Shown in pieces: positions 14,323-55,664 of a stretch of 64,000 nucleotides of DNA (within the stretch, counting starts at the first letter, position 1; the number at the start of each line of letters is the position of its first letter). The position numbers and the translations under genes were made by a program. Under the pieces are notes generated by a model. The model worked only from the letters and a program-made list of their open reading frames with translations, was not told the origin of the DNA and ran no database searches. Source of the DNA: Oceanispirochaeta sp. (GTDB lineage Bacteria > Spirochaetota > Spirochaetia > DSM-2461); NCBI GenBank assembly GCA_963663385.2, contig CAXXXD010000004.1:736001-800000 (forward strand), in the 5' to 3' direction.

Positions 14323-14996
14323 CTGCGGACAGCTCCTTCTATAAGGGTGTGGATTATTTCCGCCATCTCCTTTTTCGTACTTGTCTGAAACAGGAGCTCT
14401 CCGCCTGATGCATATATGGCGGCCGGGTGTTTATGCTCTGATATTTCCGGAAGGTTATTGTGGATGATATAGTCGACGCTCTCCCTGTGGAGGAGCTTTT
14501 CTACAGCTCTTTTCATCTCTCCCATAGAAATGGTATTGGTCAGTTTAAAACCCACTACCACGGGAGTTTTGTTTTCCGGGGCATATGCCTTTATTTTTTC
14601 AAGGATTTTAGGGTTCCTTTTAAGATGAAGAGTCAGATTCCCGTCGGAAGGGATCTTTCCTTTTTCCTGCGGTTTTATAAGGGTTCCCTTTTCTGTTTTT
14701 ATATAATCCGGAGAAAAATCGCTTACTGCCGCCAGATGCACCACTCCATGGTACTCTCCGGTTTTAAGCAGGTATTCCATTTTTGTCTTCAGGTCCCGGA
14801 AGCTGGTAAAGGGAGCTCTTTTCATTTCTCTCTTTGGAAGAGCTGCCTTTCTGCCGTGGAGGAGGGTCACGTCAGCTCCCATTTCGCTGAGTCTGTCGGC
14901 CAGCAGGGCACCGGTCCTGCCGGTTGAAATATTCGTAATGGACCGGACTCCGTCTATGGGCTCCTCGGTTCCCCCTGAGGTAATCAGTATGTTCAC
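14319..14996 (-). CDS. coaB: Phosphopantothenate-cysteine ligase (stand-alone CoaB)
   Basis: LITSGGTEEPIDGVRSITNISTG, HLAAVSDF and VGFKL. Confidence 0.9.
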   Translation of the reverse strand: MNILITSGGTEEPIDGVRSITNISTGRTGALLADRLSEMGADVTLLHGRKAALPKREMKRAPFTSFRDLKTKMEYLLKTGEYHGVVHLAAVSDFSPDYIKTEKGTLIKPQEKGKIPSDGNLTLHLKRNPKILEKIKAYAPENKTPVVVGFKLTNTISMGEMKRAVEKLLHRESVDYIIHNNLPEISEHKHPAAIYASGGELLFQTSTKKEMAEIIHTLIEGAVRR

Positions 14997-15529
14997 AGGG
15001 CTTCCTCCAGCAGGCGGACAATTTCCTCCGGTTCGGGGGCCCGCCCTTTTCCGATTGTTCCGCAGGCCAGAAAGCCCTCTTCGGGTTCTATAATCCTGGC
15101 ACCCCAGTTTTTCAGGGTGCCAAGATTTTCCTGCATCGCCGGATGGGAGTACATATTGATATTCATGGCCGGACAGATCCAGTAGGGCTTTCTGAAATTA
15201 TTGGACAGGAAAACGGCGGAGACCAGGTCTTCTGCCAGCCCCATCCGGAGACGGGCGATCGTTGCGGCCGATGCCGGATAAAGGACAATTGCATCCGCCC
15301 ACTCGGAGAGCTTTATATGGGGAATCTCATAAGCGGGATTGAACATGTCCGTTTGAACAGGTTGTCCGGTTATGCCTTCCAGAGTCACGGCGCCGATAAA
15401 CGCCAGGGCTTTTTCGGTTGCCGCCGTTTTAACGTTATGACCCTTTTTTTTAAGGGCCGATGCCAGAGACGCCGCTTTAAAGGCGGATATGGAACCGCTG
15501 ATACAGATAAGGATATTAGACGGGGACAT
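14993..15529 (-). CDS. coaC: Phosphopantothenoylcysteine decarboxylase (stand-alone CoaC)
   Basis: GSISAFK, HIxL, PASA, PAMN and LACG...GR. Confidence 0.9.
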   Translation of the reverse strand: MSPSNILICISGSISAFKAASLASALKKKGHNVKTAATEKALAFIGAVTLEGITGQPVQTDMFNPAYEIPHIKLSEWADAIVLYPASAATIARLRMGLAEDLVSAVFLSNNFRKPYWICPAMNINMYSHPAMQENLGTLKNWGARIIEPEEGFLACGTIGKGRAPEPEEIVRLLEEAL

Positions 15530-16277
15530 TATCAATTAACCTCGCTTTTCCCAGAAAGACGGCTCCGAAGATCCTGTTTTCCTGTTTTTTCAGATAGTCC
15601 ACTGTAAAACCGGAATTCTCCAGTTCCCGCCGCATCTCTTCGATGGATTTTCCGGAACTGATGGTTTTATAAAAGAGAGGGGCGGTTTCCAGCTCGTCAG
15701 GAGTGAGCATTTTGTTCCGGGAGCTCATGGCCAGGCCGCTTTTTTCTCTTACCAGCGGGCAGGGAACTATGGCGGTGTCCAGAAAAAAAGCTTCGGCCAT
15801 TCCCCTGATCAGCCGGTACTGCTGCCAGTCCTTCTCTCCGAAATACGCTCTTGTGGCCCGGGTCATCCCCAGAAGTTTCATAACCACCGTAAGGACACCG
15901 TCAAAATGGCCCGGTCGGGCGGTTCCGCACAGATCCCGGGAGTAATCCGTTTCTATCACTTTATAACGGTAATCATCCCTGTACATATCTTCGTAGGAAG
16001 GGTAGAGAAGGTAGTCTGCTCCCGCGGCCTCCAGTTCGGCTGCATCCGCCTCCCATGTAACCGGGTACGCCCTCAGATCATCGGGGTTATTGAACTGGGT
16101 CGGATTGAGGTAGATGGAAACGGCGCATATGTCATTCTCTCTGACCGCTCTGTCCACCAGGCTGATATGGGCTTTGTGGAGGGCTCCCATGGTGGGAACG
16201 AAACCGGTGGTTTTCCCTTCCGTTTTTAAATCTCGGAACCTGTCTCTCCATTCTTCTATGGACTGGATAATCTTCAT
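15516..16277 (-). CDS. panC: Pantoate-beta-alanine ligase
   Basis: FVPTMGALH, RPGHFDGV, FGEKDWQQ, GLAMSSRN and RLIDN. Confidence 0.97.
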   Translation of the reverse strand: MKIIQSIEEWRDRFRDLKTEGKTTGFVPTMGALHKAHISLVDRAVRENDICAVSIYLNPTQFNNPDDLRAYPVTWEADAAELEAAGADYLLYPSYEDMYRDDYRYKVIETDYSRDLCGTARPGHFDGVLTVVMKLLGMTRATRAYFGEKDWQQYRLIRGMAEAFFLDTAIVPCPLVREKSGLAMSSRNKMLTPDELETAPLFYKTISSGKSIEEMRRELENSGFTVDYLKKQENRIFGAVFLGKARLIDNVPV

Positions 16278-17065
16278 TAGCTGTAACTCTCCTTTTTGCC
16301 GGGGAAGGTCCTCTCTTTCACGCTGCGGTCGTACCTGTTCAGGGCCTCCAATATCAGAGAGTGTCCGTCCATAAAGGTCCGGACGAAACGGGGGCGGAAC
16401 TCTGTATTGAGCCCCAGAAGGTCCTGCAGCACAAGAACCTGCCCGTCACAGCCGTTTCCTGCTCCAATACCGATGGTAGGAATGGTCAGCTTTTCTGTGA
16501 TCCTGCGGGCCAGGAGGCGGGGGACGCATTCCAGAACCAGGGCAAAGCAGCCTGCTTCCTCCAGAGCCAGAGCATCGGACTCCAGCTGTTCCGCCCTGTC
16601 CGACTCCTTACCCTGAACTTTAAAACCGCCCATCTGATGGACCGATTGAGGTGTCAGGCCTATATGGCCCATAACAGGTACGCCCGACTCCGTTATATGA
16701 CGGATTATCTCTGTGTGTCCGCGGGTGCCTTCCAGTTTTATCGCATTGGCCCCGGCTCTCATCAGTTGTTCCGCTGCTGTCATGGCAGGTTCCAGCCCTT
16801 TCCGGTGGCTGAGGAAGGGCATGTCCCCTATTAGAAAAGCTTCTGGGGCCCCCCGGCGAACGGCTGCAGTATGCAGCGCCATTAGATCGACCGTTGCAGG
16901 GATGGTACTGTCGTAACCGTGCATGGTCATGGCCAGGCTGTCTCCCACCAGGATGCAGTCAATACCGGATCCCTGAATAATCCCGGCGCTCCAGCTGTCG
17001 TAAGAGGTCACCATGGAAAGGGGGCGGCTGTTTTCCTTGTATCTTTTAAAATCCGGTACTGTCAT
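16277..17065 (-). CDS. panB: 3-methyl-2-oxobutanoate hydroxymethyltransferase
   Basis: LVGDSL, DMPF, KLEG, GHIGLTPQS and IGIGAG..CDGQVLV. Confidence 0.97.
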   Translation of the reverse strand: MTVPDFKRYKENSRPLSMVTSYDSWSAGIIQGSGIDCILVGDSLAMTMHGYDSTIPATVDLMALHTAAVRRGAPEAFLIGDMPFLSHRKGLEPAMTAAEQLMRAGANAIKLEGTRGHTEIIRHITESGVPVMGHIGLTPQSVHQMGGFKVQGKESDRAEQLESDALALEEAGCFALVLECVPRLLARRITEKLTIPTIGIGAGNGCDGQVLVLQDLLGLNTEFRPRFVRTFMDGHSLILEALNRYDRSVKERTFPGKKESYS

Positions 17066-19164: not shown

Positions 19165-20547
19165 TTACAGCAGGAATATAGCCAGTAGCAATACAACCCC
19201 CATGGTTGCCAGGCCCTGAATCCCTGTGGCCACCGTATGGGATTTGTAGGCTGTTTTGATATCCATTCCGGTAAATTCCGCCACAACCCAGAAGTAGGAG
19301 TCGTTGGCATGGGAGACTGTCATGGCTCCTGCTCCGATACTCATCACAGTCAGAACCGATCCGATAGTCGAATCCAGTCTCAGCGTACCCAGCAGGGGCG
19401 CCATTAGGGCCGATGTTGCAACCATGGTTGTCGTGGTGGAGCCCTGGGCTGTTTTAAGAGCGGCGGCAATAAAGAAAGGCAGCAGGATTCCTATATGCCA
19501 GCTGCTCATGGAATCCCCGAGGTAGGCGGACAGCGGCGTGGCTTTGATAATGGCGCCAAAGGCTCCGCCTGCTCCGGTGATCAGGATAATGGGGCCGGCC
19601 ATACGAATCCCCGCACCGATCCATTTCATCAGAACCTCCTCCTTCAGTTCCGGTGCCAGTCCCAGGGCGCAAAGGAATCCGATAAACAGGGCAATAAAGG
19701 GTTTTCCGAGAAATATAAGTATCCCGGTCAAAAAACCCAGCCTGGCAGAAAGGGCCGGGAGGGAGGCAAACGTTCCTATGGCAATCAGGAGGATCGGGAC
19801 GATTATGGGCGAGAACGAGCGGGCTGTGGATGGGAGTTTTCCGTACTGCTCTTCGATGATGCTCTCTCCGCTGAGTCCGTTTCTGAACAACTCCTCATTA
19901 ATAAGGTCCTCCTTTGTCTCCATCTTATTTCCGATAAAACAGGCCCAGCCGTAACCTGCCAGCAGGGGAACAAAGGAGATGCAGAAGCCGTACAGGACGA
20001 CCATTCCCAGGTTGTTTGCCAACCCCAGATTGCCCGCTGCGGCAATAGGCCCCGGAGTGGGGGGAATCAATGTATGGGAGGCATACAGTCCGGTGGAAAG
20101 AGCCACAGCCATGGCCGTTACTCTGGTATGGGCTTTTCTGGTAACTGATTTTCTCATGGCATTGAGGATAATAAAACCGGAATCGCAGAATACCGGGATG
20201 GAAACGAGCCAACCGATAAGGCTCATGGCAAATTCCGGTTTTTTGGGCCCGACCAGCCTGATCACCGTATTGGCCATTTTTAAAGCGGCGCCTGATTTCT
20301 CCAGGAATACTCCTATGATAGAACCAAGAACTATAACAATTCCTATATGGGAGAGGATTGATCCGAACCCATGCCGGATAACCGGTTCAATCTCCTGAAC
20401 ATCAAACTGTCCCAGCGCCGATGCGCTGAGTCCAAGGAAGAGGGAGGCGAAGATCAGGGATATGAAGGGATGGAGTTTAAACACAGAAGAGGCCGCCACG
20501 ATCATTACAATGGAAGCAAATAACAGTAAAATCATTACTAATCCCAT
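19165..20547 (-). CDS. GntP family permease (paralog 2)
   Basis: KLHPFI, VFCDSGF, PPTPGP, AQGS and SHANDSYFW. RBS GGAGG precedes the ATG at 20547. Confidence 0.92.
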   Translation of the reverse strand: MGLVMILLLFASIVMIVAASSVFKLHPFISLIFASLFLGLSASALGQFDVQEIEPVIRHGFGSILSHIGIVIVLGSIIGVFLEKSGAALKMANTVIRLVGPKKPEFAMSLIGWLVSIPVFCDSGFIILNAMRKSVTRKAHTRVTAMAVALSTGLYASHTLIPPTPGPIAAAGNLGLANNLGMVVLYGFCISFVPLLAGYGWACFIGNKMETKEDLINEELFRNGLSGESIIEEQYGKLPSTARSFSPIIVPILLIAIGTFASLPALSARLGFLTGILIFLGKPFIALFIGFLCALGLAPELKEEVLMKWIGAGIRMAGPIILITGAGGAFGAIIKATPLSAYLGDSMSSWHIGILLPFFIAAALKTAQGSTTTTMVATSALMAPLLGTLRLDSTIGSVLTVMSIGAGAMTVSHANDSYFWVVAEFTGMDIKTAYKSHTVATGIQGLATMGVVLLLAIFLL

Positions 20548-20613
20548 ACAGAACCTCCATAGCCCGGGAAAACACATAGTAGCATAATTTAAGGGTGTGA
20601 TGCCTTTTTATAA

Positions 20614-20648
20614 CAGAAATAGGGCTGAAGCCCAATGGGTCAGCCCTG
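20614..20648 (-). terminator. Hairpin or intrinsic terminator between the gntP paralogs
   Basis: AGGGCTGA...TCAGCCCT stem followed by a T-rich tail on the minus strand. Confidence 0.6.
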
Positions 20649-20671
20649 TATTCCCTTTTAACAGCCCGTTT

Positions 20672-22057
20672 TTACAGCAGAATAAAGGAGAGGATCAGAA
20701 CAATGGTTATTGTGACCAGTCCCTGGATCAAAGTGGCAGCCGTCTGTGATTTATATGCCGTCTTAACGTCCATTCCCGTAAACTCAGCCACGACCCAGAA
20801 ATAGGAGTCGTTGGCGTGGGAAACGGTCATGGCTCCGGCGCCGATGCTCATAACAGTCAGGACGGCACCGATGGTGGAGTCCAGCCCGAGGGAGGCAAGG
20901 AGAGGGGCCATCAGGGCGGATGTTGTAACCAGAGCAGTTGTGGAGGAACCCTGAGCTGTTTTAAGAGCCGCAGCTATACAGAAGGGAACAAGGATACCCA
21001 GGCTCCAGCCGCTCATGGACTGCCCCAGATAATCGGCTACGGGAGTCGCTTTGATAATGGCACCGAAAGCTCCACCGGCACCGGTAATAAGGATGATGGG
21101 GCCGGCCAGTTTGATCCCCTCGCCGATCCATTTCATCAGGACTTCCTCATCCAGTCCGGGAGCCAGTCCCAGGGCGAAGAAGAAACCTATAATAAGGGCC
21201 ATTACGGGCTTACCGAAAAACTTGAAAAGATTAGCAATAAAGCCGGTTCCCATCAGGTCTCCGGGGAAGGAGGCGATGGTTCCCAGAGCAATCAGAAGAA
21301 TGGGGATCAGGATGGGAGCGAAAGCCTGAAAAGTGGAAGGCAGCTTACCGTACTGGTTTTCGATAGCTTTCTCTTCCAGATCCAGTCCCTTGGCAAAAGC
21401 CGTTTCATTATCCAGGTCTTCCTGAATCCTGATTTTACCGCCAATGTATTTGGCCCAGAAAAAACCGGCCAGCATAGTAAAGATGGAAATGATCATTCCG
21501 AATATGATTACCAGTCCAAGGCTGTCTTCCAGGCCCAGGTTTCCTGCCGCAGCGATGGGGCCGGGTGTGGGAGGTACAAGAGTATGGGAGGCGTACAGAC
21601 CGGTTGCCAGGGCAACACTCATCATGGTGGCCGATACTTTTGCCTTGTGTGTTACAGACTTTCTTAAGGCGGAAAGGATAACATAACCGGAATCACAGAA
21701 TACAGGGATGGATACGAACCAGCCGATAATGCTCATAGCCAGTCCGGGTCTTTTGGGGCCGACCATTTTCAGGATGGTGTCAGCCATCCTGATGGCTGCT
21801 CCTGATTTTTCCAGGAAAACTCCGATGATGGTTCCCAGAACAATTACGATTCCGATATAGGCAAGTATCCCGCCGAATCCCGAACGGATGGTGGATTCCA
21901 CCGCCATTACATCAAACTGTCCCAGAGCGGATGCCCCCAGACCTACAAACAGTGCCGCAAAAATCAAAGCAATAAAAGGATGCAGCTTAAAAACAGAAGT
22001 GGCTACTACGATCAGCACAATCGATGCTGCGAGCAGCAGAATCATCACTAAACCCAT
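20672..22057 (-). CDS. GntP family permease (paralog 1)
   Basis: Same GntP motifs. RBS GGAGG precedes the ATG at 22057. Confidence 0.92.
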   Translation of the reverse strand: MGLVMILLLAASIVLIVVATSVFKLHPFIALIFAALFVGLGASALGQFDVMAVESTIRSGFGGILAYIGIVIVLGTIIGVFLEKSGAAIRMADTILKMVGPKRPGLAMSIIGWFVSIPVFCDSGYVILSALRKSVTHKAKVSATMMSVALATGLYASHTLVPPTPGPIAAAGNLGLEDSLGLVIIFGMIISIFTMLAGFFWAKYIGGKIRIQEDLDNETAFAKGLDLEEKAIENQYGKLPSTFQAFAPILIPILLIALGTIASFPGDLMGTGFIANLFKFFGKPVMALIIGFFFALGLAPGLDEEVLMKWIGEGIKLAGPIILITGAGGAFGAIIKATPVADYLGQSMSGWSLGILVPFCIAAALKTAQGSSTTALVTTSALMAPLLASLGLDSTIGAVLTVMSIGAGAMTVSHANDSYFWVVAEFTGMDVKTAYKSQTAATLIQGLVTITIVLILSFILL

Positions 22058-22085
22058 ATGATAATCCTCCAAATATAATTTTATA

Positions 22086-27246: not shown

Positions 27247-27300
27247 TTGACAACAGCAAAAAATATGTTAATCTGAAAACGTTACCGGTAACGTTGCCGG
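27247..27300 (+). promoter_or_regulatory. Promoter and tandem LacI operators upstream of the LacI gene
   Basis: TTGACA (27247-52), 16 bp spacer, TGn-TAATCT (27269-74), then GAAAACGTTACCGGTAACGTTGCCGG. Confidence 0.75.
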
Positions 27301-27315: not shown

Positions 27316-28326
27316 ATGGCGACTATTAAGGACATAGCGAAAAAAGCCAATGTATCAGTTTCTACGGTTTCCCGGGTTCTGAATAGCAAGCCCGATGTAA
27401 AAGCTGAGACAAAGGAAAAAATTGACAGAGCTATTGCAGAACTCGGATTCAGTCCAAGCACCGTTGCCAGGGGACTCGTTCTTAAAAAATCCAATATCAT
27501 CGGTTTTATTGTTCCCGACATAGCCAATCCCAGTTTTCCCGAGTTGGCGAGAGGCGTGGTGAACCGCGCCAGAACTTTGGGGTATTCGGTTATGTTTTTT
27601 GATACGAACCACGACAACCGGGTCGAGGTGGAAGCATTGAATTTAATGCAGGGAAAGCATGTGGACGGTATAATCCTCTCCTTTGATGAAGCGAACAGGG
27701 AGGAGCTGAAAAAACTCAAGGAAGAGCAGTTTCCTGTTGTCCAGATTTACCGGAAATCTTCAGAAAATTCAATTTCGACTGTTGCACTGGATAATGAATA
27801 TGCCGGAGAGATGGCTACGCATTACCTGATTCAAAAGGGGCACAAAAGGATAGGGCTTATCTCTACGGGGGAACGGACTCAATCCGGTTACGAGCGGATG
27901 AAGGGTTACAGAAAAGCCCTTGAAGAGGCGGGGATCTCGCCGGATGAGAAACTCATTCAGGTGGGCAAAAATGATGCCGAATCGGGAAAAGCCTGTATGG
28001 ATTCCCTGCTGCAGCTGGATCCCGCGCCAACAGCTGTCTTTGTCATTCATGACCTGATGGCCGTAGGCGCTTATGAGTCGATTTATGATAAAGGTCTGTC
28101 CATTCCCGGTGATATTTCGATTGTCGGTCATGATAATATCGATTTTTCCAGTTATCTTCGTCCGAAACTGACCACTATCGATACCCATAAATTCCATCTG
28201 GGAGAGATTGGTGTCGATCTACTTGTCGAGGAGATTGATGCGGAAAAGCCCCTCAACCGGGAGGCCGTCATTCAGGCGGAGCTGATTGAGAGGGAGTCTG
28301 TCAGGGATTTATTAAAAACAAGGTAA
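27316..28326 (+). CDS. LacI family transcriptional regulator
   Basis: TIKDIAKKANVSVSTVSRVLN followed by a sugar-binding fold (DISIVGHD, LTTI). Confidence 0.96.
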   Translation: MATIKDIAKKANVSVSTVSRVLNSKPDVKAETKEKIDRAIAELGFSPSTVARGLVLKKSNIIGFIVPDIANPSFPELARGVVNRARTLGYSVMFFDTNHDNRVEVEALNLMQGKHVDGIILSFDEANREELKKLKEEQFPVVQIYRKSSENSISTVALDNEYAGEMATHYLIQKGHKRIGLISTGERTQSGYERMKGYRKALEEAGISPDEKLIQVGKNDAESGKACMDSLLQLDPAPTAVFVIHDLMAVGAYESIYDKGLSIPGDISIVGHDNIDFSSYLRPKLTTIDTHKFHLGEIGVDLLVEEIDAEKPLNREAVIQAELIERESVRDLLKTR

Positions 28327-28344
28327 AAGAATTATTTTACAATT

Positions 28345-28376
28345 TTCCGGTAACGTTACCGAGAACGTTACCGGAA
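28345..28376. promoter_or_regulatory. Tandem LacI operators upstream of the ARH/ABC/citDEF operon
   Basis: CGGTAACGTTACCG (perfect palindrome, 28348-61) overlapping GAGAACGTTACCGG. Confidence 0.75.
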
Positions 28377-28400
28377 GAAAGTGGATGAATAGGAGTCATT

Positions 28401-29411
28401 GTGAGTATAAAAGAAGAAATCAGCAGAGAGTTTAATAGTCCCGATGCGGTGGAATTCGCCGGCAGAGCCATTGCGGCTATGGTCGCTCTGGGAATCGGCG
28501 ATGCGGCCGGGGATCTGGGGCGGGACGATGATGTCCGTCAGAAATATGGGATTCTCACGACCTTGCTGCCTGAGGGGAAAAGCACGGATGATACGGAATT
28601 TACCGTCCTTACAGCCAGAAGTATTCTTGATTGCCCCGGTGAGTATACCAATGAATTTGTTGCGGAAACATGGAGAAAACTGGTGCTTGCCGATGGCGGA
28701 GCCAGAGAAAGAGGCGGCATGCCTTTATACGGTGCTCTCAACAATCTTTCCAGGGGAGTGAATCCTCCCCTTTCCGGCCGGGATAATGTATTTAATGTGG
28801 ATGACGGTGCGGCGATGAGGGCAGTTCCCTTCGGTATCGTCGGAAACGGGGATACCGGCAAAGCGGCGGAAATGGCCGCTGTTGATGCGTCTGTCAGTCA
28901 TGATAAAGACGGCATATGGGCGGCGCAGGCCATTGCGGCAAGCATTACTGTGGCATTGAAGGGCGGGGCTGTCGACGCTGTTATCGAAGCGGGACGCAAG
29001 TATATACCGGAAGACAGCTGGCTGGGACGCAGAATGGATCAGACATTCAAGATGCTGGATGAAACAGAAGATCCCGACGAAGCTTATGAACTGCTGCACA
29101 CCCTTCTCTGGACACCTAAACACTCATCGGCTCCCGAAGCTGTCCCCCAGATTTACGGGCTTTATAAAATGAGCGGCGGCAGTTTTAAAAAAGGATTCAA
29201 ACTGTCAGCGAATTTCGGCAGGGATGCCGATACGATCTGTGCTCTGGTTCTGGCTCTCTGTGCCGCCGGTGAGGGATTGGATGTTATCCCCGAGGAATGG
29301 ATTGAACAGGTGCGGACGCCCGCCGGTGTCTGCCTCCGCTTCGCCGCCGGTGAGGATATGGTGGAACTTGGGAAAAAACTTGTTTCCCATGCGCTTCGAC
29401 AAGCAGGTTGA
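28401..29411 (+). CDS. ADP-ribosylglycohydrolase (DraG/ARH) family protein
   Basis: GDAAG, STDDTE, DGAAMRAVP, SH and GRDADT. Confidence 0.88.
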   Translation: MSIKEEISREFNSPDAVEFAGRAIAAMVALGIGDAAGDLGRDDDVRQKYGILTTLLPEGKSTDDTEFTVLTARSILDCPGEYTNEFVAETWRKLVLADGGARERGGMPLYGALNNLSRGVNPPLSGRDNVFNVDDGAAMRAVPFGIVGNGDTGKAAEMAAVDASVSHDKDGIWAAQAIAASITVALKGGAVDAVIEAGRKYIPEDSWLGRRMDQTFKMLDETEDPDEAYELLHTLLWTPKHSSAPEAVPQIYGLYKMSGGSFKKGFKLSANFGRDADTICALVLALCAAGEGLDVIPEEWIEQVRTPAGVCLRFAAGEDMVELGKKLVSHALRQAG

Positions 29412-29414
29412 TCT

Positions 29415-30317
29415 ATGAAAAAACAGCAGCTGAAGAAAAGGATATACCGGGACCGGGCGCTGTATCTCATGTTTATTCCCGTTCTGCTCTATTATGTGAT
29501 TTGGCACTACGTTCCCATGTGGGGAGCCAGAATCGCGTTTCAGAATGTCAGATACATCGGCCCCAATGAGTGGGCCGGGCTTAAACATTTCAGGATGCTC
29601 TTTTCTTCCCCGGTTTTTCTGAATGTCTTCAAGAACACCGTCATTATCAGTTCCATGAAGATTTTCATCTTCTTTCCCATGCCGATTATCCTGGCTTTCC
29701 TGTTCAATGAAGTCAGAAGCGTTAATTACAGGAAGGCCGTGCAGAGTGTAATCTACCTGCCCCATTTCTTTTCATGGGTCGTCATTGCCGGGATTTTCAT
29801 TTCACTTCTCTCTTCGCCGGACGGAGTCGTCAATGTTATTTTGAACTTCTTCAATCGGGAGCCTGTCTCTTTTATGACATCCACAAAGCATATACGGTGG
29901 GTGCTTGTCTTTTCGGAAATCTGGAGGAGTATCGGATGGGATTCCATTCTATATATTGCGGCTATCAATTCCATCTCTCCCACGCTCTACGAAGCGGCAA
30001 CGATTGACGGAGCTTCCAAATTCCAGCAGGCATTGCGAATTACCTTTCCGGCCATTGTTCCGACTATCATAACGGTTTTCATCCTCAATCTGGGGTTTTT
30101 TATGAATGCCGGTTTTGACCAGGTCTTCAATATGATGAACGATGCGATCATTAACCATATCGATATCATAGACACCTATGTGTACCGCATCGGACTGGCC
30201 AAGGGGAATTTCTCCCTGGGTACGGCAGCGGGACTGTTTAAGGGGATCATCGGCCTTTTTCTCATATTGACGACCGACAGGCTGAGCAGAAAAGCAACGG
30301 GCGAGGGGGTCTGGTAA
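29415..30317 (+). CDS. Carbohydrate ABC transporter permease (LplB-like)
   Basis: YLPHFFSWV and EAA loop LYEAATIDGASKFQ. Confidence 0.93.
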   Translation: MKKQQLKKRIYRDRALYLMFIPVLLYYVIWHYVPMWGARIAFQNVRYIGPNEWAGLKHFRMLFSSPVFLNVFKNTVIISSMKIFIFFPMPIILAFLFNEVRSVNYRKAVQSVIYLPHFFSWVVIAGIFISLLSSPDGVVNVILNFFNREPVSFMTSTKHIRWVLVFSEIWRSIGWDSILYIAAINSISPTLYEAATIDGASKFQQALRITFPAIVPTIITVFILNLGFFMNAGFDQVFNMMNDAIINHIDIIDTYVYRIGLAKGNFSLGTAAGLFKGIIGLFLILTTDRLSRKATGEGVW

Positions 30318-31201
30318 TGGTTGTGGAAAAAAAGAGTCCGGGGAACGGGATAATCTGTGTGCTGCTCTTTCTGCTAGCCCTGATCATGGTGTATCCCATT
30401 TACAATCAACTTGTCATCTCCCTGACGGGACCGGAGTATATCGCCGCAGCCGACGGGACGACACTTATACCTCACGGGTTCACTCTTAATACATATAAAA
30501 ATGTTCTCTCTATAGGAAAAGTTTATAGAGGGCTGCTCAACAGTATACTCATCACATCCGCAGGGCTGTTTATCAACATCGTTCTGACAAGTATAGGCGC
30601 CTATGTCCTGACAAAAAGAGATCTGCCGGGAAGACAGATTTTTATCACACTGATTATAATCACTATGATAATAGAAGGGGGGCTGATTCCCGATTATTTC
30701 CTGATGAAGGACCTCCATCTACTCAACACCTACTGGTCGGTCATCCTTTATAAGGCTGTGAATCCCTACTATCTGATTATCCTGATGCGCTTTTTTGACA
30801 AAGTACCGAAATCTCTGATTGAAGCGGCCAGAATCGACGGGTATGGAGAGACCAGGATTCTGTTCAAGATCGTCATGCCCATCAGTGTGGCGGGACTGGC
30901 GACGATCAGTCTGTTCTATGGTGTTTTTCACTGGAATGAATATTTCAGAGCCATGATATACCTGACCGATGAGTGGAAAGTTCCGCTGCAGGTCGTTGTC
31001 AGGGAACTGGTTATTGCAGGAGAAAAAGCCAGTTTTATCGGAGCTACGAATTATTTCAATGTGGAGGGAGCGGCGACTATCGACTTCAAGGCTCTTAAAG
31101 CCGCCCTTATCATTCTTGTTATTTTACCAATTCTTCTGTTTTACCCCTTTGTACTGAAATATTTTGTCAAAGGTAAGCTGGAAGGTTCGGTTAAGGAATA
31201 G
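30317..31201 (+). CDS. Carbohydrate ABC transporter permease (LplC-like)
   Basis: GGLIP, LIEAARIDG, WNEYF and C-terminal GSVKE. Confidence 0.93.
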   Translation: MVVEKKSPGNGIICVLLFLLALIMVYPIYNQLVISLTGPEYIAAADGTTLIPHGFTLNTYKNVLSIGKVYRGLLNSILITSAGLFINIVLTSIGAYVLTKRDLPGRQIFITLIIITMIIEGGLIPDYFLMKDLHLLNTYWSVILYKAVNPYYLIILMRFFDKVPKSLIEAARIDGYGETRILFKIVMPISVAGLATISLFYGVFHWNEYFRAMIYLTDEWKVPLQVVVRELVIAGEKASFIGATNYFNVEGAATIDFKALKAALIILVILPILLFYPFVLKYFVKGKLEGSVKE

Positions 31202-31233
31202 ATTTTGTTTTTAATGTTTCTAAGGAGGATTAC

Positions 31234-32640
31234 ATGAAACGATTTTCACTGACAATTCTGGGTGTATTGCTTATGGTATCTCTGGGATTCGCTAACGGAC
31301 AGAAAGATGAAGCGGCACCGTCTGACTCAACTCAGACCATCAGGATGGTTCTGAAGGATTTTTCGCCTTCCGAGGAAGTCAATGCCCGGTTTCTGAAGAA
31401 TGTGGAAGCCGGGTTTGAAACCTGGTCCGGTAAAAAGATCCATATTGAGGCCGTTCAGATGCCGGAAGGGGCCTATGCCGAAAAACTGAATCTTATGCTG
31501 CTCGGGGGAGATATCCCCGATCTTATCTATTTCCAGGGAGGAGACGAAGTCATATCCAATCAGGGGCTCCTGGTTAATTTGAATGACTATGCCAAATCAT
31601 CCGAGGTCATGAATAAAGCCATGATGGATTTTAACCGGGACCGTCTGGCCAATTATCCCTACATCCTCTGGATCGCACCGCCAAGGGCGAGAACCGCTGT
31701 AATCAGAGAGGACTGGTTTGCAGAGGCGGGAGGAAAAATTCCCGTTACGATTGATGATTACTACAACCTGTTTAAAACTGTAAAAGCCAATCACCCCGAT
31801 GTCGCCGTTATGACCGATACGGGGAACACGACGAGAATGGACTATACATTCAATCAGGCATTCGGTGTCAGTGCCACCTGGATCAGGCAGGGAAACTCCT
31901 ATGTTTACTGCAAAGTTTCAGAAGGAGAAAAAGATAAACTGGCCTTTTACCAGAAGCTCTACCGGGAAGGCCTCTTTGACAGGGATTATGTCACAACCGC
32001 ATGGGACAGCATGGAGGACAAACTCTATACGAATCAGGTTGCGGTAGTATTCGGTACAGCCGGAATCATTCTCGATATCTATGAAAATAAACTTATGGAA
32101 AACCAGAATGTCGGACTGGTCGCTCTGCCTCCCGCCAAAGGGAAGGGACAAGGATATGCTGTTTCTACTGCCAAGGAAACCAGGGGATGGGCTATCAGCG
32201 CTACTTCGAAAAATCCCGGTCTGACATTTGAACTGCTTGAGTTCATGGCAACCGATGAAGGCCAGATAATGGATCGATACGGAGTCGAGGGCATCCATTT
32301 TACCAGAAACGGAGATGAAATCGTAAGGACCGAGAAAGCATCGGAATGGTGGCCCAAATTCCATGAAGTCATGACCTGGAACGCTCCCACTCCCCTTATG
32401 GGAGAGGTTGGAATGAAGGGCTGGGAGTTTATCGCCGATTATGCGGTCGGCGACCCTGATTTCCCGATTCCTGAAGATTTTTCGGCAACATGGGACGCCC
32501 TGGAAAACCTTTATAAAGAGTATAGCTTTAAAATCATAACCGGCGAGTACGGTATCGATAAATTCGATGAGTTCGTCGATAAGTGGTACGATCTGGGCGG
32601 AACGGACGTAACAGAATACGCGCAGACAATGATGAAATAA
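31234..32640 (+). CDS. Carbohydrate ABC transporter substrate-binding protein
   Basis: Signal ending FANGQKD, GDIPDL, YGVEGIHF and FDEFVDKW..LGG. Confidence 0.9.
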   Translation: MKRFSLTILGVLLMVSLGFANGQKDEAAPSDSTQTIRMVLKDFSPSEEVNARFLKNVEAGFETWSGKKIHIEAVQMPEGAYAEKLNLMLLGGDIPDLIYFQGGDEVISNQGLLVNLNDYAKSSEVMNKAMMDFNRDRLANYPYILWIAPPRARTAVIREDWFAEAGGKIPVTIDDYYNLFKTVKANHPDVAVMTDTGNTTRMDYTFNQAFGVSATWIRQGNSYVYCKVSEGEKDKLAFYQKLYREGLFDRDYVTTAWDSMEDKLYTNQVAVVFGTAGIILDIYENKLMENQNVGLVALPPAKGKGQGYAVSTAKETRGWAISATSKNPGLTFELLEFMATDEGQIMDRYGVEGIHFTRNGDEIVRTEKASEWWPKFHEVMTWNAPTPLMGEVGMKGWEFIADYAVGDPDFPIPEDFSATWDALENLYKEYSFKIITGEYGIDKFDEFVDKWYDLGGTDVTEYAQTMMK

Positions 32641-32649
32641 TAAGCCTGG

Positions 32650-32680
32650 TCCCGGATAGGGGTTTACCTGTTATCCGGGA
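32650..32680 (+). other. Intercistronic stem-loop after the binding-protein gene
   Basis: TCCCGGATA...TATCCGGGA with no U tract. Confidence 0.65.
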
Positions 32681-32710
32681 TAAGGCTGTGAAAACAGTGC
32701 AGAGAGAGAA

Positions 32711-34792
32711 ATGGATAAGACGAGATATTTGGAGCAGGTTTACGGAGGACTTCTGGGTAAATGCGCCGGAGTCAGGCTCGGAGCGCCTGTGGAGCCGACA
32801 ATCTGGACGTATAAGCGAATCAGATCGACTTACGGGAACATAACCGGCTATATCAAAGACTACAGGAATTTTGCCGCCGACGATGATGTCAACGGCCCCC
32901 TTTTTTTTATCCGGGCCCTCTTCGATAACGACGAGGTAACGGAAAAAGAGATCGCACGGACCTGGCTGAATTATACCCGGGAAGGAATCGGTTTTTACTG
33001 GTGGGGCGGATACGGTGTCAGTACGGAACACACGGCCTACCTCAATCTCAAATCGGGAATGGAAGCCCCCGAATCGGGAAGTATCAGGGTTAACGGATCC
33101 ACTGTGGCCGAACAGATCGGCGGTCAGATCTTTATAGATTCCTGGGGATGGGTTTTTCCCGGCGATGCAGCATCGGCTGCCCGGTATGCGTCGATGGCCG
33201 CCAGCGTCAGCCATGATGGAAACGGTATTTACGGCGGCGTTTTTATCGCTGTATGTATTTCTCTCGCTTTTGGTAACAGAGATGTCCACAGTATTGTCGA
33301 AGAGGCCCTGAAATGGATTCCGGAAGATTCGGAATATGCCCGCGTCGTCACTTCCGTAAGGGATTTTCATAAAGAGAATCCGGAGGACTGGCGATTATGC
33401 CGGGAATATCTGGAAGACAATTTCGGATATGACCGTTATCCCGGAGTCTGTCACATGATTCCCAATGCCGGTGTTTGCGCTCTGGCCCTTTATTACGGCG
33501 GGGGAGACTTTGCCCGCACCATAGAAATCGCAACAATGTGCGGCTGGGATACGGACTGCAATGCCGGAAATGTGGGATCCATTTTAGGTGTTATGAACGG
33601 TCCGGAAGGAATCCCCGTCCGTTACCGGACCCCCATTAATGACTTCCACGCAGCGAGCAGTATCTCCGGGGCTTTGAATATCATTGATCTGCCAACGGCG
33701 GCGAAGGAGCTGGCGATTCTGGGGCTGGAACAGAAAGACGAAGCGATCCCGCAGGAGTGGAAGAGGGGAACATTTTCCGATGATATCTATCTGGATTTCT
33801 CTCTTCCCGGTTCTACATCGGGGTTGAGGACCTCTTCCGCATACCTGGCGCCGATCGGTCCGGGAGAGGAGTTTTTCAGAAAGGACTGCGTCTCCATTCT
33901 TCTGGACCGGCTGGTCCGGGGAGATACGGCGAGAATCTTTTACAAACCCTTTTACCGCCGGGAAGATTTTGATGATGAGCGGTACTCTCCCACTTTCACT
34001 CCTCTGGTGTATTCCGGCCAGAGACTGAGAATTCGGGGGGAGGTAGAGAAGATGAGCGGTCAGAGGATCGCTGTGTCTCCTTATGTCAGGGACAGCTCGG
34101 GAAAGGAAATTTTCAGCGATTCCTCTATTTTCCCGGTGCCGGGAGAAGAATTTGAACTTGACTGGTTAATTCCCGAGGTGCCCTTCGCCATTGATGAAAC
34201 CGGCCTTCTGGTAACGAATTTCGATAGCGAAAAGTATCTTGGAAAACTATCTATTAAGGAGATGGAGATAACCGGGAAAAAATCCTTTTTCATTGATTTT
34301 AAAGAGGAAACAAAAGAGTTCCGGGGGTTGAGCCGATGCTCCTGCATGGGCGGGGCATGGGACCTTGAATTCGGGGGACTTCATGTTCTCACTCAGGATG
34401 AGTTTTATCTCTGTTCCGGTCCCTATTATCTGCGGGACTGCCTGGTGGAAACACGCCTTATTCCGGAAAACGGCGACAGCCATATGGTTATGGCCCGATC
34501 CGGCGGAGCTGAAACAGGGTATTTCTTCGGCCTGTCCGGGGAAAACAGGGCCGGTCTCTACAAAAAAAATCACACACTGGAATTGCTGCGTGAAGTGGAT
34601 TTTACATGGGAACCGGGGAAGGAATACAGAATTTCCCTTGAAGTATCCGGCAGCACGGTCAAGTGCCGTATTGACGGGCAGGAACTGATCTATTTTACGG
34701 ATGAGAAACCGCTTCTCTATGGAATGGCCGGAACAGCCAAGCTGCAGGGCGGGCGAACTCTTTTTCTCGACCTTTCCTGCCGTGAGAACTGA
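32711..34792 (+). CDS. Long ADP-ribosylglycohydrolase family protein with C-terminal beta-sandwich domains
   Basis: GVRLGAPVE, ADDD, IGGQIFID, SVSHDG and GWDTDCNAGNVG, followed by about 350 aa of beta-rich extension. Confidence 0.85.
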   Translation: MDKTRYLEQVYGGLLGKCAGVRLGAPVEPTIWTYKRIRSTYGNITGYIKDYRNFAADDDVNGPLFFIRALFDNDEVTEKEIARTWLNYTREGIGFYWWGGYGVSTEHTAYLNLKSGMEAPESGSIRVNGSTVAEQIGGQIFIDSWGWVFPGDAASAARYASMAASVSHDGNGIYGGVFIAVCISLAFGNRDVHSIVEEALKWIPEDSEYARVVTSVRDFHKENPEDWRLCREYLEDNFGYDRYPGVCHMIPNAGVCALALYYGGGDFARTIEIATMCGWDTDCNAGNVGSILGVMNGPEGIPVRYRTPINDFHAASSISGALNIIDLPTAAKELAILGLEQKDEAIPQEWKRGTFSDDIYLDFSLPGSTSGLRTSSAYLAPIGPGEEFFRKDCVSILLDRLVRGDTARIFYKPFYRREDFDDERYSPTFTPLVYSGQRLRIRGEVEKMSGQRIAVSPYVRDSSGKEIFSDSSIFPVPGEEFELDWLIPEVPFAIDETGLLVTNFDSEKYLGKLSIKEMEITGKKSFFIDFKEETKEFRGLSRCSCMGGAWDLEFGGLHVLTQDEFYLCSGPYYLRDCLVETRLIPENGDSHMVMARSGGAETGYFFGLSGENRAGLYKKNHTLELLREVDFTWEPGKEYRISLEVSGSTVKCRIDGQELIYFTDEKPLLYGMAGTAKLQGGRTLFLDLSCREN

Positions 34793-34796
34793 TGCT

Positions 34797-35063
34797 ATGG
34801 AAAAAAAAGTCGGAACGGATGCAAAACAGGATGCTGTAGTAACGGTATCGGACACTGCTGCGGATTTACAAGTTGAAATACGGTCTCCCCTGGAAGATCT
34901 GTTCGGTAAATCCCTGGAAAAAGCGGCAAGGGAAGAACTCAGTCGTTTGAATGTACGGAACGGGACGGTTCTTATTGAAGACAATCAGGCATTGGATTTT
35001 GTTATCCGGGCCCGGATTAAAGCGGCTGTTTCGATACTCAGAGAAATGGGAGGGGAAATTTGA
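34797..35063 (+). CDS. citD: Citrate lyase acyl carrier protein (gamma subunit)-like, atypical
   Basis: GT....D.VVTV, S..E.LFG..L and EDNQALDFVIRARIKAA match the CitD pattern. Directly upstream of citE and citF. Confidence 0.8.
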   Translation: MEKKVGTDAKQDAVVTVSDTAADLQVEIRSPLEDLFGKSLEKAAREELSRLNVRNGTVLIEDNQALDFVIRARIKAAVSILREMGGEI

Positions 35064-35932
35064 GAAGCTGGCTCTACTGTCCCGGAAACAGTCCCAAAAT
35101 GATCATCAATGCCGGTTTATACGGTGCGGACGCTCTTGTTTTCGACCTTGAAGATTCCGTTGCGGAAAGTCATAAGATCGAAGCCCGTTATCTTCTGGCT
35201 CAGGCTTTTGCCGAGAGGATCATCCCTGTTGAGAAATCCGCTGTGAGAATCAACGGTTTTGAATCGGAACACTGGCGAAAGGATCTTGAGGAGATCATTC
35301 CCGCGGGAGGACGGATAATCCGCATTCCCAAAGTGGAGAGTCCTCAGCAGATCGGCGAGATAAGTGCTGAAATCGATGGCATCGAAGCGGAATCGGGAAT
35401 TCCCCGGGGGGCTGTTACAATTCAGTGCCTTTTTGAAACGCCGACAGGGGTGGAAAACGCCTTTCTGATAGGCAATTCATCCTCCCGGATCAGAGCCTAT
35501 TCTTTCGGCGCCGAGGATTACAGTTCTCTCCTCGGGATCAACCGCGGCGGAGATCTCCTGCCCCTGGATTATCCGAGAAGCAGAATCGCCTCGGCGGCGG
35601 CTGCCTTCGGCTATACCGCCCTGGATACGGTATGGGGATTCCTCAATGATCCTGACGGACTGGAAACGGATACGCTGAGGGGGAAAAGGCTGGGGTTTCA
35701 CGGGAAATCGGTGATTCATCCCGACCAGATTGATATAGTCAACAAACTCTATGCTCCGACGGAAAAAGAGATTGAAACGGCCAGAGCCATACTCGAAAAA
35801 AATAACATGGCAGAAGGCGGTGCGTCGTCGTTCAAGGGAAGGATGATAGATTTACCGGTAGTTGAAAGGGCACGGAAGATCATAGGGGCTGCCGGAATTG
35901 AAGAATTGCAGGACGGGAAAAATGATAAATGA
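35060..35932 (+). CDS. citE: Citryl-CoA/ACP lyase (beta subunit; HpcH/HpaI-CitE family)
   Basis: RSWLYCPG, FDLEDSV, VRIN, PKVE, FGAEDY and GKSVIHP. Confidence 0.9.
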   Translation: MRSWLYCPGNSPKMIINAGLYGADALVFDLEDSVAESHKIEARYLLAQAFAERIIPVEKSAVRINGFESEHWRKDLEEIIPAGGRIIRIPKVESPQQIGEISAEIDGIEAESGIPRGAVTIQCLFETPTGVENAFLIGNSSSRIRAYSFGAEDYSSLLGINRGGDLLPLDYPRSRIASAAAAFGYTALDTVWGFLNDPDGLETDTLRGKRLGFHGKSVIHPDQIDIVNKLYAPTEKEIETARAILEKNNMAEGGASSFKGRMIDLPVVERARKIIGAAGIEELQDGKNDK

Positions 35933-37448
35933 CGCCGGGCGGGAGATCCCCGAAACTATCACGGGAATCCGGAATGTCTCTCCTTACAGAAATCAGCAGA
36001 AAGAAAGAGCCGGGAAGAGAATGTCACCCCCGCCGGCAAAGGAAAAAACAACTCAATTTTCACAGTCTCTTGAAGAGGCGATTGCCCGGTCCGGTTTAAA
36101 AAACGGAGACCGAATCAGTTTTCACCATCATCTCCGTCTCGGAGACAGGGTTATGGAACAGGTCCTGGGTGTGCTGGACCGGATGGGGTTCCGGGATCTG
36201 ATTGTATGCCTCTCTTCCGTTATGGGACCCTCCGCCGCTGCCGTACTTAAGGCCGTTGAATCCGGAGTTGTCCGGAGAATCGAAACAACCGGTTTAAAAT
36301 CTCCCCTTTCCGAAGCGCTGCTTGACGGGAAAATTCCCGAGCCTGTCATCTTTCGTTCCCATGGCGGCCGGGCAAGAGCGATTGAGAGAGGAGAAACTCC
36401 TATTAATCTGGCATTTATCGCTGCATCAGCTGCCGATAAGAGGGGGAATCTCACCGGTATGGAAGGGCCTAATCAATTCGGATCCCTCGGTTATGCCATC
36501 GTAGACAGTATATACGCCACCTATGTCATTGGCATTACAGATCATTTTACCGATTCACTGCAGGAAAGAGCCGGTATTACGGGAAATCATGTTGATGAAG
36601 TGGTCCGAATCTCCTCCATCGGTGATAACAAGGGGATTGCCGGAGGTTCTCTGCGTCAGTCCCGCAGTCCTGTTGAAAAGCTGATTGCCCGCCGGACTAT
36701 GGAATTCCTGCTGACGGCGGGAGTTGTCAAAGAGGATTTTTCCTATCAGGCAGGCAGCGGCGGAATCTCTCTGCTTGTTACGAGTTATCTGAAATCCTAT
36801 ATGGAGGAAAACAGCATTAAAGGGAGTTTTGCTTCAGGCGGAGTAACGGGAGATCTTGTGGCAATGCTTAAAAGCGGCCTTTTCAAGACTCTCTGGGATG
36901 TCCAGAGTTTTGATATTGATGCAGTTCAATCTCTGAAGGAAAACCTGTTTCACAGGGAAATGAGCGCTTCCCTTTATGCCAATCCCGACAACGCTGAATG
37001 TATGGCCCACAAACTGGATGTCATGATTCTGTCCGCCACAGAAATCGACAGGGATTTTAATGTGAATTCCATAACCGGAACCAATGGAAGAATACTCGGC
37101 GCGCTGGGGGGAGCCCCCGATACGGCTTACGGTTCCCGATTGACCGTGGTTGTCATGCCGTCGTTCCGGGGACGAATCCCGACAGTCTCGGAGCGGGTAA
37201 GGACTGTCTGTACTCCGGGACCAACGGTAGATGCTCTTGTTACCGAGAGGGGCATTGCTGTCAATCCCCGGCGTGAAGATCTGTTCCATCGATTGAAAAA
37301 CAGTTCTCTGCCGTTAATTTCCATGGATGATCTGATAGGACGGGTCTATCAATTGACAGGCAAACCCGATCTTCCGGAAGAAGGCCATGAGGTTGCGGGA
37401 GTTGTTGAATATCGGGACGGTTCCATTCTCGATTGCATCCGGAGATAG
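35922..37448 (+). CDS. citF: Citrate lyase alpha subunit (citrate CoA/ACP-transferase)
   Basis: ISFHHHLR.GD, RSHGGRARAI, QAGSGG, DVQSFD, TPG.TVD.LVTE.GIAVNP and VEYRDG. Confidence 0.92.
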   Translation: MINDAGREIPETITGIRNVSPYRNQQKERAGKRMSPPPAKEKTTQFSQSLEEAIARSGLKNGDRISFHHHLRLGDRVMEQVLGVLDRMGFRDLIVCLSSVMGPSAAAVLKAVESGVVRRIETTGLKSPLSEALLDGKIPEPVIFRSHGGRARAIERGETPINLAFIAASAADKRGNLTGMEGPNQFGSLGYAIVDSIYATYVIGITDHFTDSLQERAGITGNHVDEVVRISSIGDNKGIAGGSLRQSRSPVEKLIARRTMEFLLTAGVVKEDFSYQAGSGGISLLVTSYLKSYMEENSIKGSFASGGVTGDLVAMLKSGLFKTLWDVQSFDIDAVQSLKENLFHREMSASLYANPDNAECMAHKLDVMILSATEIDRDFNVNSITGTNGRILGALGGAPDTAYGSRLTVVVMPSFRGRIPTVSERVRTVCTPGPTVDALVTERGIAVNPRREDLFHRLKNSSLPLISMDDLIGRVYQLTGKPDLPEEGHEVAGVVEYRDGSILDCIRR

Positions 37449-54160: not shown

Positions 54161-54176
54161 TGAATCCTTCTGATTA

Positions 54177-54300
54177 TACATTCGTATGCAGTTAAATGAA
54201 TTATATTGATATTTTATATCATATTATTATTGATAAAGCAAATAAAAGAGAATAATGTTGACAAATGGGTTGTTTTGGGAATAAAATGTATTCGAATGCA
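54177..54300. promoter_or_regulatory. Divergent promoter region with two LacI-type operators
   Basis: TACATTCGTATGCA at 54177-90 and TGTATTCGAATGCA at 54287-300. TTGACA (54258-63), 18 bp spacer, TAAAAT. Confidence 0.7.
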
Positions 54301-54320
54301 TAACAAATAAGGAGTCTATT

Positions 54321-55592: not shown

Positions 55593-55598
55593 TGTCTG

Positions 55599-55634: not shown

Positions 55635-55664
55635 TCATATACCGATTCAAAAAGAGATAGAAAT

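Follow-up and report, generated by a model that had tools for sequence, protein, structure and literature searches.

Several described systems share parts with the nine-gene run analyzed here, which lies at positions 27316 to 37448 of a 64,000-nucleotide stretch of Oceanispirochaeta sp. DNA (hereafter the window; C4:736001-800000 of a 5.3-Mb genome that is 98% complete). The ADP-ribosylglycohydrolases (ARHs) described as ARH1, ARH3, DraG, Tri1 and MJ1187 resemble the two ARHs of the window, which we also call ARH1 and ARH2, in fold (Z 32-33) and metal ligands. Citrate lyase (CitDEF; EC 4.1.3.6) and clostridial citramalate lyase have the same D, E, F gene order as the window and homologous subunits, and pairs of a CoA transferase with a CitE-type enzyme (citramalyl-CoA, malyl-CoA, RipC/Ccl) share with it a predicted activation by free CoA followed by C-C cleavage. 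In the accessible part of its description, the ribose-utilisation system (rus) of Bacteroidetes consists of a regulator, a transporter, a ribokinase and variable hydrolases that include ADP-ribosylglycohydrolases; that part gives no ARH activity or substrate and mentions no acid lyase (bioRxiv 10.1101/574913). Four consecutively numbered ARH homologues of S. coelicolor, SCO2028-SCO2031, are called uncharacterised in the accessible text of PMC9411070.

The window also departs from these systems. Its ARHs share 14-24% identity with the known ARH/DraG enzymes, differ from them in sequence at the pyrophosphate loop, have, in ARH2, an extra lectin domain, and lie in a catabolic setting with no ADP-ribosyltransferase. 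Unlike the EC 4.1.3.6 system, its citDEF has no cofactor serine, citC/G/X, citrate carrier or CitAB and shares its operon with two ARHs and a sugar-type importer. The transferase is a CitF rather than a family III enzyme, and CitE, like the CaiB of related loci, scores under every named model. Whereas rus uptake is of the SusCD/MFS type, the window operon has an ABC importer, and no SusC/SusD, RusT or linked ribokinase is found among its nine genes. Judged by family membership, the operon would fall outside both the ACP-dependent citrate lyases and the protein ADP-ribosylhydrolases, and would represent a CoA-transferase and lyase pair placed behind a glycosidase. A preliminary description of this DNA knew of no pathway of such composition, and we found no account of one joining ARHs, an ABC importer and citrate-lyase-type enzymes in full-text literature that covers few subscription journals. 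The operon is built of known parts and laid out like other LacI-ABC-hydrolase catabolic operons; the pathway is apparently undescribed.

The nine open reading frames (ORFs), lacI-ARH1-permease-permease-SBP-ARH2-citD-citE-citF (SBP, solute-binding protein), are all on the + strand and form what is, on sequence grounds, a repressor-controlled operon, present in several bacterial phyla and, like the pathway, apparently undescribed. It is probably repressed by LacI and serves the catabolism of a citrate-like acid that carries ribose, and we are slightly surer that the substrate would be ribose joined to a 2-substituted malate. Pfam assigned the genes, in order, to LacI, ADP_ribosyl_GH (336 aa), two BPD_transp_1, SBP_bac_1, ADP_ribosyl_GH (693 aa), ACP/CitD, HpcH_HpaI/CitE and CitF. 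The intergenic gaps in the same order are 74, 3, -1, 32, 70, 4, -4 and -11 nt, by which ARH2-citD-citE-citF look translationally coupled. ORFs, Pfam and gap lengths agree with the close packing on one strand reported earlier, with the citD start corrected to the ATG at 34797 (88 aa) and that of citF placed at 35922. A consensus scan, which across the window performed at chance level overall (21 vs 17.9; 18 vs 13.9), gave no promoter-like site before citD and no terminator-like match between ARH2 and citD. The gene after citF encodes a convergent GGDEF protein, and the GC content of the operon is unremarkable against the rest of the window. The features are as follows.

27247..27252, + strand: TTGACA, a -35-like hexamer upstream of lacI, in four of five aligned lacI upstream regions
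27278..27295, no strand assigned: predicted operator 1, an 18-bp palindrome with one mismatch directly before lacI, from the upstream alignment
27316..28326, + strand: LacI-family repressor, 336 aa (PF00356 and PF13377)
28340..28369, no strand assigned: predicted operator 2, overlapping palindromic sites before ARH1 at 28352 (two mismatches) and 28340 (four mismatches)
28401..29411, + strand: ARH1, single-domain ARH-fold hydrolase, no signal peptide by eye (PF03747, E 1e-41)
29415..30317, + strand: carbohydrate ABC permease 1 (PF00528), 75-78% identical in related loci
30317..31201, + strand: carbohydrate ABC permease 2 (PF00528, weak), 71-75% identical in related loci
31234..32640, + strand: solute-binding protein with an N-terminal signal-like stretch (PF01547)
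32711..34792, + strand: ARH2, with an ARH-fold domain (~1-345), a beta-rich middle domain and a C-terminal CBM66-like lectin domain (~526-692) (PF03747, E 1e-58)
34797..35063, + strand: CitD-like small subunit, 88 aa, with Lys for the cofactor serine; 34% identical to the genome's canonical CitD
35060..35932, + strand: CitE-like acyl-CoA C-C lyase (under the TIGR01588 cut-off)
35922..37448, + strand: CitF-like CoA/ACP transferase, 508 aa (TIGR01584); 43% identical to the canonical paralog

Interchangeable lyase modules beside the ARH core

Gene replacement in related loci is the main evidence for the proposed catabolic scheme. Neighbourhoods were mapped by tblastn around the best 80 of 581 confirmed ARH2 matches in metagenomes, of which 47 were classed as core and 33 as other loci; the loci are related by descent and the counts overstate their independence. 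An acid-cleaving module was present in 33 of these best 80 loci (CitDEF in 15, CaiB in 10, AtuA with DUF4387 in 8), and none of the 80 carries two kinds. CitE accompanies CaiB in 8 of the 10 loci, and the remaining two end near a contig edge. No module was seen in 17 core loci, 15 of which have less than 5 kb on one side; where at least 5 kb was available on both flanks, a module occurred in 22 of 24 core loci and in 0 of 12 distant ARH2 loci. The core rule placed the short CitDEF contigs L072, L080 and L082 under other loci, whereas the ARH2 tree puts them in the core clade. In that tree, built from the catalytic domain and, as with all trees used here, a quick one, a 42-row clade holds all three module types with several switches between them; two of the CitDEF loci fall elsewhere in the tree, and one group of 13 rows is without modules. 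That three enzyme systems with one chemistry occupy one slot makes chance adjacency hard to accept. A sister three-domain ARH2 group (39-43% identity; L037:10344-12467, L038:10046-12199, L104-L134) has other importers, kinases, nucleoside hydrolases or glycosidases and no lyase, and probably handles other ribosides.

In the PDB, AtuA is matched by 9ERQ/9EVF, entries named "citramalate lyase subunit A (cmlA)", with an E-value of 3e-135. As far as the accessible texts go, Cml splits citramalate directly into pyruvate and acetate (bioRxiv 10.64898/2026.01.16.699985), and DUF1446 is located behind mal in enterobacteria (PMC4682846). CmlAB (AtuA with DUF4387) takes the slot of CitDEF in 8 of the best 80 loci and in genome G287; it is unrelated to CitDEF in sequence and absent from the window operon. 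Nine ARH-linked CmlA proteins form their own clade (value 100 in the tree), apart from three glutamate-cluster enzymes and separated by 13 fixed differences. The clade has two fixed gains of Lys (Tyr to Lys and Ser to Lys; positions not mapped on a structure), which would suit an additional, third carboxylate. AtuA with DUF4387 also lies beside aldehyde/alcohol dehydrogenases (and P450 and fumarate hydratase), with no glutamate mutase, at L149:4986-11314 and L151:1-9201.

The same core is found on annotated plasmids. It stands with a CoA transferase and a CoA ester lyase (CaiB and CitE) in Ensifer and Sinorhizobium, with a ribokinase in Agrobacterium, and with no annotated tail on others; the ARH1 query found nothing on plasmids at E 1e-20. 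In Deinococcus and Nonomuraea, related clusters combine several ARHs with a ribokinase, and the Nonomuraea cluster (four ARHs, importer and ribokinase) shares ARH types with the ARH loci mapped. Among the best 80 loci, a ribokinase-like gene is present in 10 of the 47 core loci and in 13 of the 33 others; the best models for its reference protein are ribokinases, at a score of 279 against a cut-off of 300. No Nudix or phosphatase family was recurrent among neighbours present in at least three loci.

Within the order, the divergent CitF was found in 6 of 37 other genomes at 52-69% identity. Three of these (G005, G018, G028) have all nine genes on a single contig, lacI being divergent in G028, and in the other three (G027, G029, G031) the genes are split over contigs; gene order is the same and the flanking genes differ. 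The cluster is present in 1 of 10 same-genus genomes. Among 400 sampled other genomes of the phylum, three match ARH2 at E <= 1e-60, one of which, G287, has the ARH/importer core with CmlAB. The co-occurrence search suggested in the preliminary description thus shows that the adjacency of ARHs and citDEF is not unique to this genome, since it recurs in relatives and metagenome loci. In an unrooted tree, ARH-linked CitF proteins form four long-branched groups, none of which falls with the canonical spirochaete CitF. The ARH2 query scored 7999 proteins, 4910 of them at E <= 1e-20, and its close named homologues are mostly spirochaete proteins. The CitD homologue search returned four matches only, and a CitF scan of GTDB contigs gave one locus, without ARHs. 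Single-ARH loci with GntR, a PfkB kinase and an ECF transporter occur in two related genomes (L043:5156-10384 and L045:10068-16409) and resemble E. coli yegTUVW. A haloarchaeal ARH gene adjoins a tripartite tricarboxylate transporter and two enolase-family genes (L141:3117-11083), a possible archaeal link between ARHs and tricarboxylates.

Properties of the window proteins and their regulation

CitD, CitE and CitF homologues stand consecutively, as in a citrate lyase gene run. By Pfam, the nine genes include no citC, citG, citX, carrier, two-component pair, kinase or ATPase. The earlier statement that citC, citG and citX are missing holds for the cluster but not for the genome, in which one copy of each, together with a second citF and canonical citDE, lies on contig C3 near a TctC-type receptor. 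The canonical CitD, CitE and CitF all pass their NCBIfam cut-offs, while the window CitD (49 bits vs 63.5 for TIGR01608; canonical copy 104) and CitE (225 bits vs 443 for TIGR01588; canonical copy 471) fail theirs. The window DEF genes are therefore a divergent paralog beside a canonical citrate lyase, and not the ordinary citrate lyase that the preliminary description had allowed for. An IS110-family element is inserted between citC and citD of the canonical operon (G000:C3:65213-66427; L008:7214-8428), where it may affect expression; the element has 10 near-identical genomic copies, and one more lies 6 kb upstream.

All catalytic motifs of CitE (DLED, R, E, GAED and the C-terminal Asp) are retained in the window copy. 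The serine of CitD is the attachment site of phosphoribosyl-dephospho-CoA. At this column the window copy has Lys, and the same residue stands in 15 of the 19 ARH-linked relatives that aligned (one further ARH-linked CitD did not align), whereas CitD not linked to ARHs has Ser in 13 of 14 cases; the missing serine is a correction to the preliminary description. The Lys is conserved as G-x-x-x-K-x-D across separate CitF groups and is not a random substitution. A role in binding the phosphates of CoA, or as the site of another modification, is conceivable. In CitE, all 30 other ARH-linked copies of the alignment have His where canonical spirochaete enzymes have Ser/Thr, the canonical set being the genome copy and 13 relatives' loci (n=14, no other phyla), in which the Lys-type L009 is exceptional in having His. 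The L009 locus (L009:6736-11548, a Brevinema genome) combines GntR and a 2-hydroxycarboxylate carrier with Lys-type citDEF and has neither citC/G/X nor ARHs, which implies that the cofactor-less form of CitDEF makes up a wider subfamily. Both CitF and CitE are able to work on free CoA esters.

A CmlAB-type citramalate lyase lies 10 kb beyond the window, in a glutamate mutase/methylaspartate ammonia-lyase cluster (G000:C4:805862-811619; L138) that corresponds to a spirochaete methylaspartate pathway with the new citramalate lyase type. Because the genome already has a citrate lyase and a citramalate lyase, the window CitDEF likely acts on a third acid, neither citrate nor citramalate.

Both ARH models have the all-helical fold of the PF03747 superfamily. 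The ARH1 model (pLDDT 92.8) matches ARH3 best (Z 33.0, rmsd 2.6, 295 aligned), as does that of ARH2 (pLDDT 92.5; Z 32.0, rmsd 2.8, 304 aligned), whose C-terminal domain matches CBM66 (Z 22.5, rmsd 1.6, 152 aligned). CBM66 binds terminal furanosides. As had been noted earlier, both ARHs keep acidic metal-ligand motifs (TDD/DDD and DADT/DTD), which are invariant in 23 of 23 ARH1-type rows, as TDD and DADT, and in 72 of 72 ARH2-type rows, and would ligate two metal ions. The DraG and Tri1 models scored ARH1 at 49 against a cut-off of 337 and at 22 against 490, respectively, and did not match ARH2. In DraG and ARH3, a GNG loop binds pyrophosphate. By sequence alignment, ARH1 has Asp and ARH2 unrelated sequence at this loop; Asp135 of ARH1 is invariant, and DraG has Asn there, in GNGAAMR. 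The substitution is consistent with loss of pyrophosphate binding, but is not proof of it.

The importer has the composition of a CUT1 system (SBP_bac_1 with two permeases). The closest solved structures to its solute-binding protein are AlgQ1/AlgQ2 (E 1e-12), which bind acidic oligosaccharides. The operon itself has no ATPase; a stand-alone gene at C4:348839-349942 encodes one 51% identical to UgpC of the rhizobial operon, and this UgpC-like (MsmK-type) ATPase may power the importer.

PurR and RbsR are the closest NCBIfam models for LacI, both under cut-off. The lacI gene has a conserved palindrome, a predicted operator, at its own 5' end and at that of the operon, as in LacI-type operons. 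Across all 9 upstream regions in the alignment, taken from five loci, fourteen columns of the operator never vary, a matching operator precedes ARH1 in L033, L035, L036, L039 and L055, and each of the five mapped loci with the motif has a LacI 45-75% identical to that of the window. The whole 5.3-Mb genome has two operator sites at no more than two mismatches, both in this operon, so that the LacI regulon, as predicted, appears to be this operon alone. No operator motif was found before citD. The TTGACA upstream of lacI was not listed by the promoter scan because of a weak -10 match.

Elsewhere in the window are a GntR regulator followed by two near-identical tandem GntP-family permease genes (19165-22072), a run resembling pantothenate/CoA synthesis (panB, panC, coaC, coaB, type III kinase, panD; translations judged by eye; 13212-17065), and another LacI-ABC cluster, behind which lies a gene for a protein of 530 aa, sulfatase-like by eye (53183-58995).

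Proposed pathway, substrate and alternatives

The preliminary description had proposed that a glycosylated or ribosylated hydroxy-acid conjugate is imported and cleaved by the ARHs, and that CitEF splits its citrate-like aglycone. Our results support this order of events, the substrate itself being inferred. In the pathway that we propose, the binding protein and permeases would import an acidic ribo-oligosaccharide with the help of a shared MsmK-type ATPase encoded elsewhere. In the cytoplasm, the metal-dependent ARH1 and ARH2 would serve as ribofuranosidases. ARH2, which has the furanoside-type lectin domain, would trim terminal riboses and ARH1 would cut another linkage, or vice versa, and the freed ribose would pass to a ribokinase encoded elsewhere. 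CitF would then transfer CoA from acetyl-CoA to the freed acid, and CitE would split the acyl-CoA into a 2-oxo acid and acetyl-CoA, so that the net reaction would give a 2-oxo acid and acetate. CitD would serve as a structural subunit without the phosphoribosyl-dephospho-CoA arm, in which case CitC, CitG and CitX would not be needed.

Named members of the CitEF, CaiB with CitE, and CmlAB systems convert a 2-substituted malate to a 2-oxo acid and an acetyl unit, and by analogy the ARH-linked versions would all split a 2-substituted malate as well. The recurrent ribokinase-like gene implies that free ribose is released; joined to the shared malate-type chemistry, it points to a ribosyl 2-substituted malate as substrate. 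The acid released from the riboside is somewhat favoured to be a tricarboxylate. Lyases of the CitE family take (S)-malyl-, (S)-citramalyl- and (3S)-citryl-CoA as substrates, and (S)-homocitrate, by Cahn-Ingold-Prelog priorities, has the same geometry; the homoaconitase of the lysine pathway uses (R) homocitrate. The leading named candidate, which we would not put at even chances, is ribocitrin or its mono- or di-ribosyl fragments, with (S)-homocitrate converted to 2-oxoglutarate and acetate. Ribocitrin is a tririboside of (S)-homocitric acid, for which the accessible sources give a tentative detection by liquid chromatography-mass spectrometry in Streptomyces extracts and no established biosynthesis (PMC12381216, PMC13136089); in PMC11003894 none of the terms for its biosynthesis was found. 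Ribocitrin fits as an acidic ribo-oligosaccharide that would yield free ribose and an acid of CitE-compatible geometry.

Several observations weigh against this scheme. The mapped loci are kin, so that module counts are not independent events, and some cores have no lyase (L061, L051, L052). The window has no kinase, the genome's best match to the reference kinase is 32% identical, and that reference itself falls below its cut-off. Lys-type CitD also occurs without ARHs, in L009, beside a 2-hydroxycarboxylate carrier. The window CitF passes the TIGR01584 citrate-lyase cut-off, if narrowly (532 vs 501; canonical copy 763). Four of the 19 ARH-linked CitD retain Ser, and L074 has citC, G and X, which plain citrate would also fit. 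As for ribocitrin, it has three linkages against two ARHs in the operon, and the accessible literature reports it from Streptomyces only (PMC12381216, PMC13136089), while the operon occurs in spirochaetes, Rhizobiales and other lineages.

The CitF and CitD points bear on the alternative that survives best, itself a form of the ribosylated-acid scheme and counted within it, in which plain citrate (or citramalate) is the acid released and a dedicated lyase without cofactor has been retained only for co-induction with the importer. The CitF score and the Ser-type CitD with citC, G and X in the L074 ARH locus speak for it, and the Lys changes of CmlA suit citrate as well as homocitrate. However, CitE reaches only about half of the citrate-lyase cut-off, ARH-linked CitE proteins have His in place of the Ser/Thr of canonical spirochaete enzymes, and the genome already has lyases for both acids. 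Aerobic rhizobia, moreover, can oxidise citrate via the TCA cycle and yet carry CaiB and CitE. We regard this alternative as unlikely.

It is less likely still that the sugar is other than ribose, or that the lyase splits a branched sugar acid from a plant or microbial glycan. CBM66 was named from a fructan context, and the CBM66-like domain of ARH2, the resemblance of the importer to oligosaccharide binders and the lack of a ribokinase in the window operon would agree with this. The partner kinase nevertheless has ribokinases as its best models, the ARH fold is that of ribosyl hydrolases, and three lyase types with malate-like chemistry occupy the slot; ADP-ribosylglycohydrolase genes also occur in Bacteroidetes ribose-utilisation loci, according to the accessible text of bioRxiv 10.1101/574913.

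Scavenging of ADP-ribose conjugates (O-acyl-ADP-ribose, ADP-ribosylated peptides or poly(ADP-ribose) fragments), with the lyase handling the acyl group, is suggested by the best structural match of both ARH models, since ARH3 cleaves conjugates of these types. We consider it improbable, by a little more than a change of sugar. The recurrent partner is ribokinase-like, implying free ribose, and no Nudix or phosphatase recurs; the GNG loop aligns with an Asp in ARH1 and with unrelated sequence in ARH2; and ARH2 has a CBM66-like domain. SCO2028 and SCO2030 were inactive on uracil-ADP-ribose (PMC13036486), a result for one substrate and for proteins whose orthology to the window ARHs is not established.

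The cofactor of citrate lyase, phosphoribosyl-dephospho-CoA, has a ribose-ribose bond resembling that of poly(ADP-ribose), and the preliminary description had offered, as its alternative, that the ARHs act on a cofactor of this type, which they would then recycle or remove. One locus with citC, G and X would agree. The idea is not supported, and we hold it very improbable, because the adjacent CitD has lost the attachment serine, 18 of the 33 lyase-bearing loci use CaiB, which works on free CoA, or the CoA-independent CmlAB, neither with such a cofactor, and an importer would be superfluous. That a sugar operon and a degenerate citrate lyase came together by chance, as the patchy distribution (1 of 10 same-genus genomes) and long CitF branches might suggest, is largely refuted by the same gene order within different flanks in 6 of 37 relatives, the four separate ARH-linked CitF groups, the substitution of CitDEF by two other lyase types and the retained catalytic residues.

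Possible makers of the substrate and wider meaning

We take CaiB and CitE genes to adjoin SCO2028-SCO2031 as well. A mention of SCO2028 in PMC5036795 is an apparent typo and was set aside.

A broader picture, speculative and on balance unlikely, would make ribosylated (S)-homocitrate a widespread overlooked metabolite, built by a module associated with tellurite-resistance (Ter) operons and eaten by unrelated bacteria via ARHs and any of three lyase types, which would be the first (S)-homocitrate lyases. The (S) geometry is what would be expected of a CitE-fold synthase and favours a Ter-module origin; PRTases, however, normally give beta-ribosides, and the linkages of ribocitrin are presumably alpha, both of which count against it. 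In the Ter-module example, the lyase is distantly CitE-like. The biosynthetic module of Ter operons comprises, in the accessible text, a CitE-like C-C_Bond_Lyase, PRTase_2, StiP, a HAD-like phosphatase and ATP-grasp (PMC11994780). This list mirrors the operon, in that one would make the acid and add riboses and the other remove riboses and split the acid, which makes the module a candidate maker. The reading is weakened by the lack of physical linkage between the Ter module and ARH loci among the loci examined, and a search for the Ter-type lyase family PF15617 in 38 genomes from the order and a sample of 301 from the phylum found no member. StiP gave no useful PDB match. The published prediction for the module, as cited in the accessible text of PMC11994780, is a pyrimidine ribonucleoside, which weighs against a ribocitrin maker.

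For most bacterial members of the ARH family no substrate is known. The operon offers a concrete and inexpensive test of whether a large ARH branch consists of small-molecule ribofuranosidases in carbon catabolism rather than erasers of protein modification. A further prediction from it is a complex of the citrate-lyase type that works on free CoA without a prosthetic group and is probably an (S)-homocitrate lyase. Were ribocitrin the substrate, a degradation pathway would be at hand for an orphan natural product, and reverse logic would suggest candidates for its biosynthesis, including the long-unexplained module beside tellurite-resistance operons.

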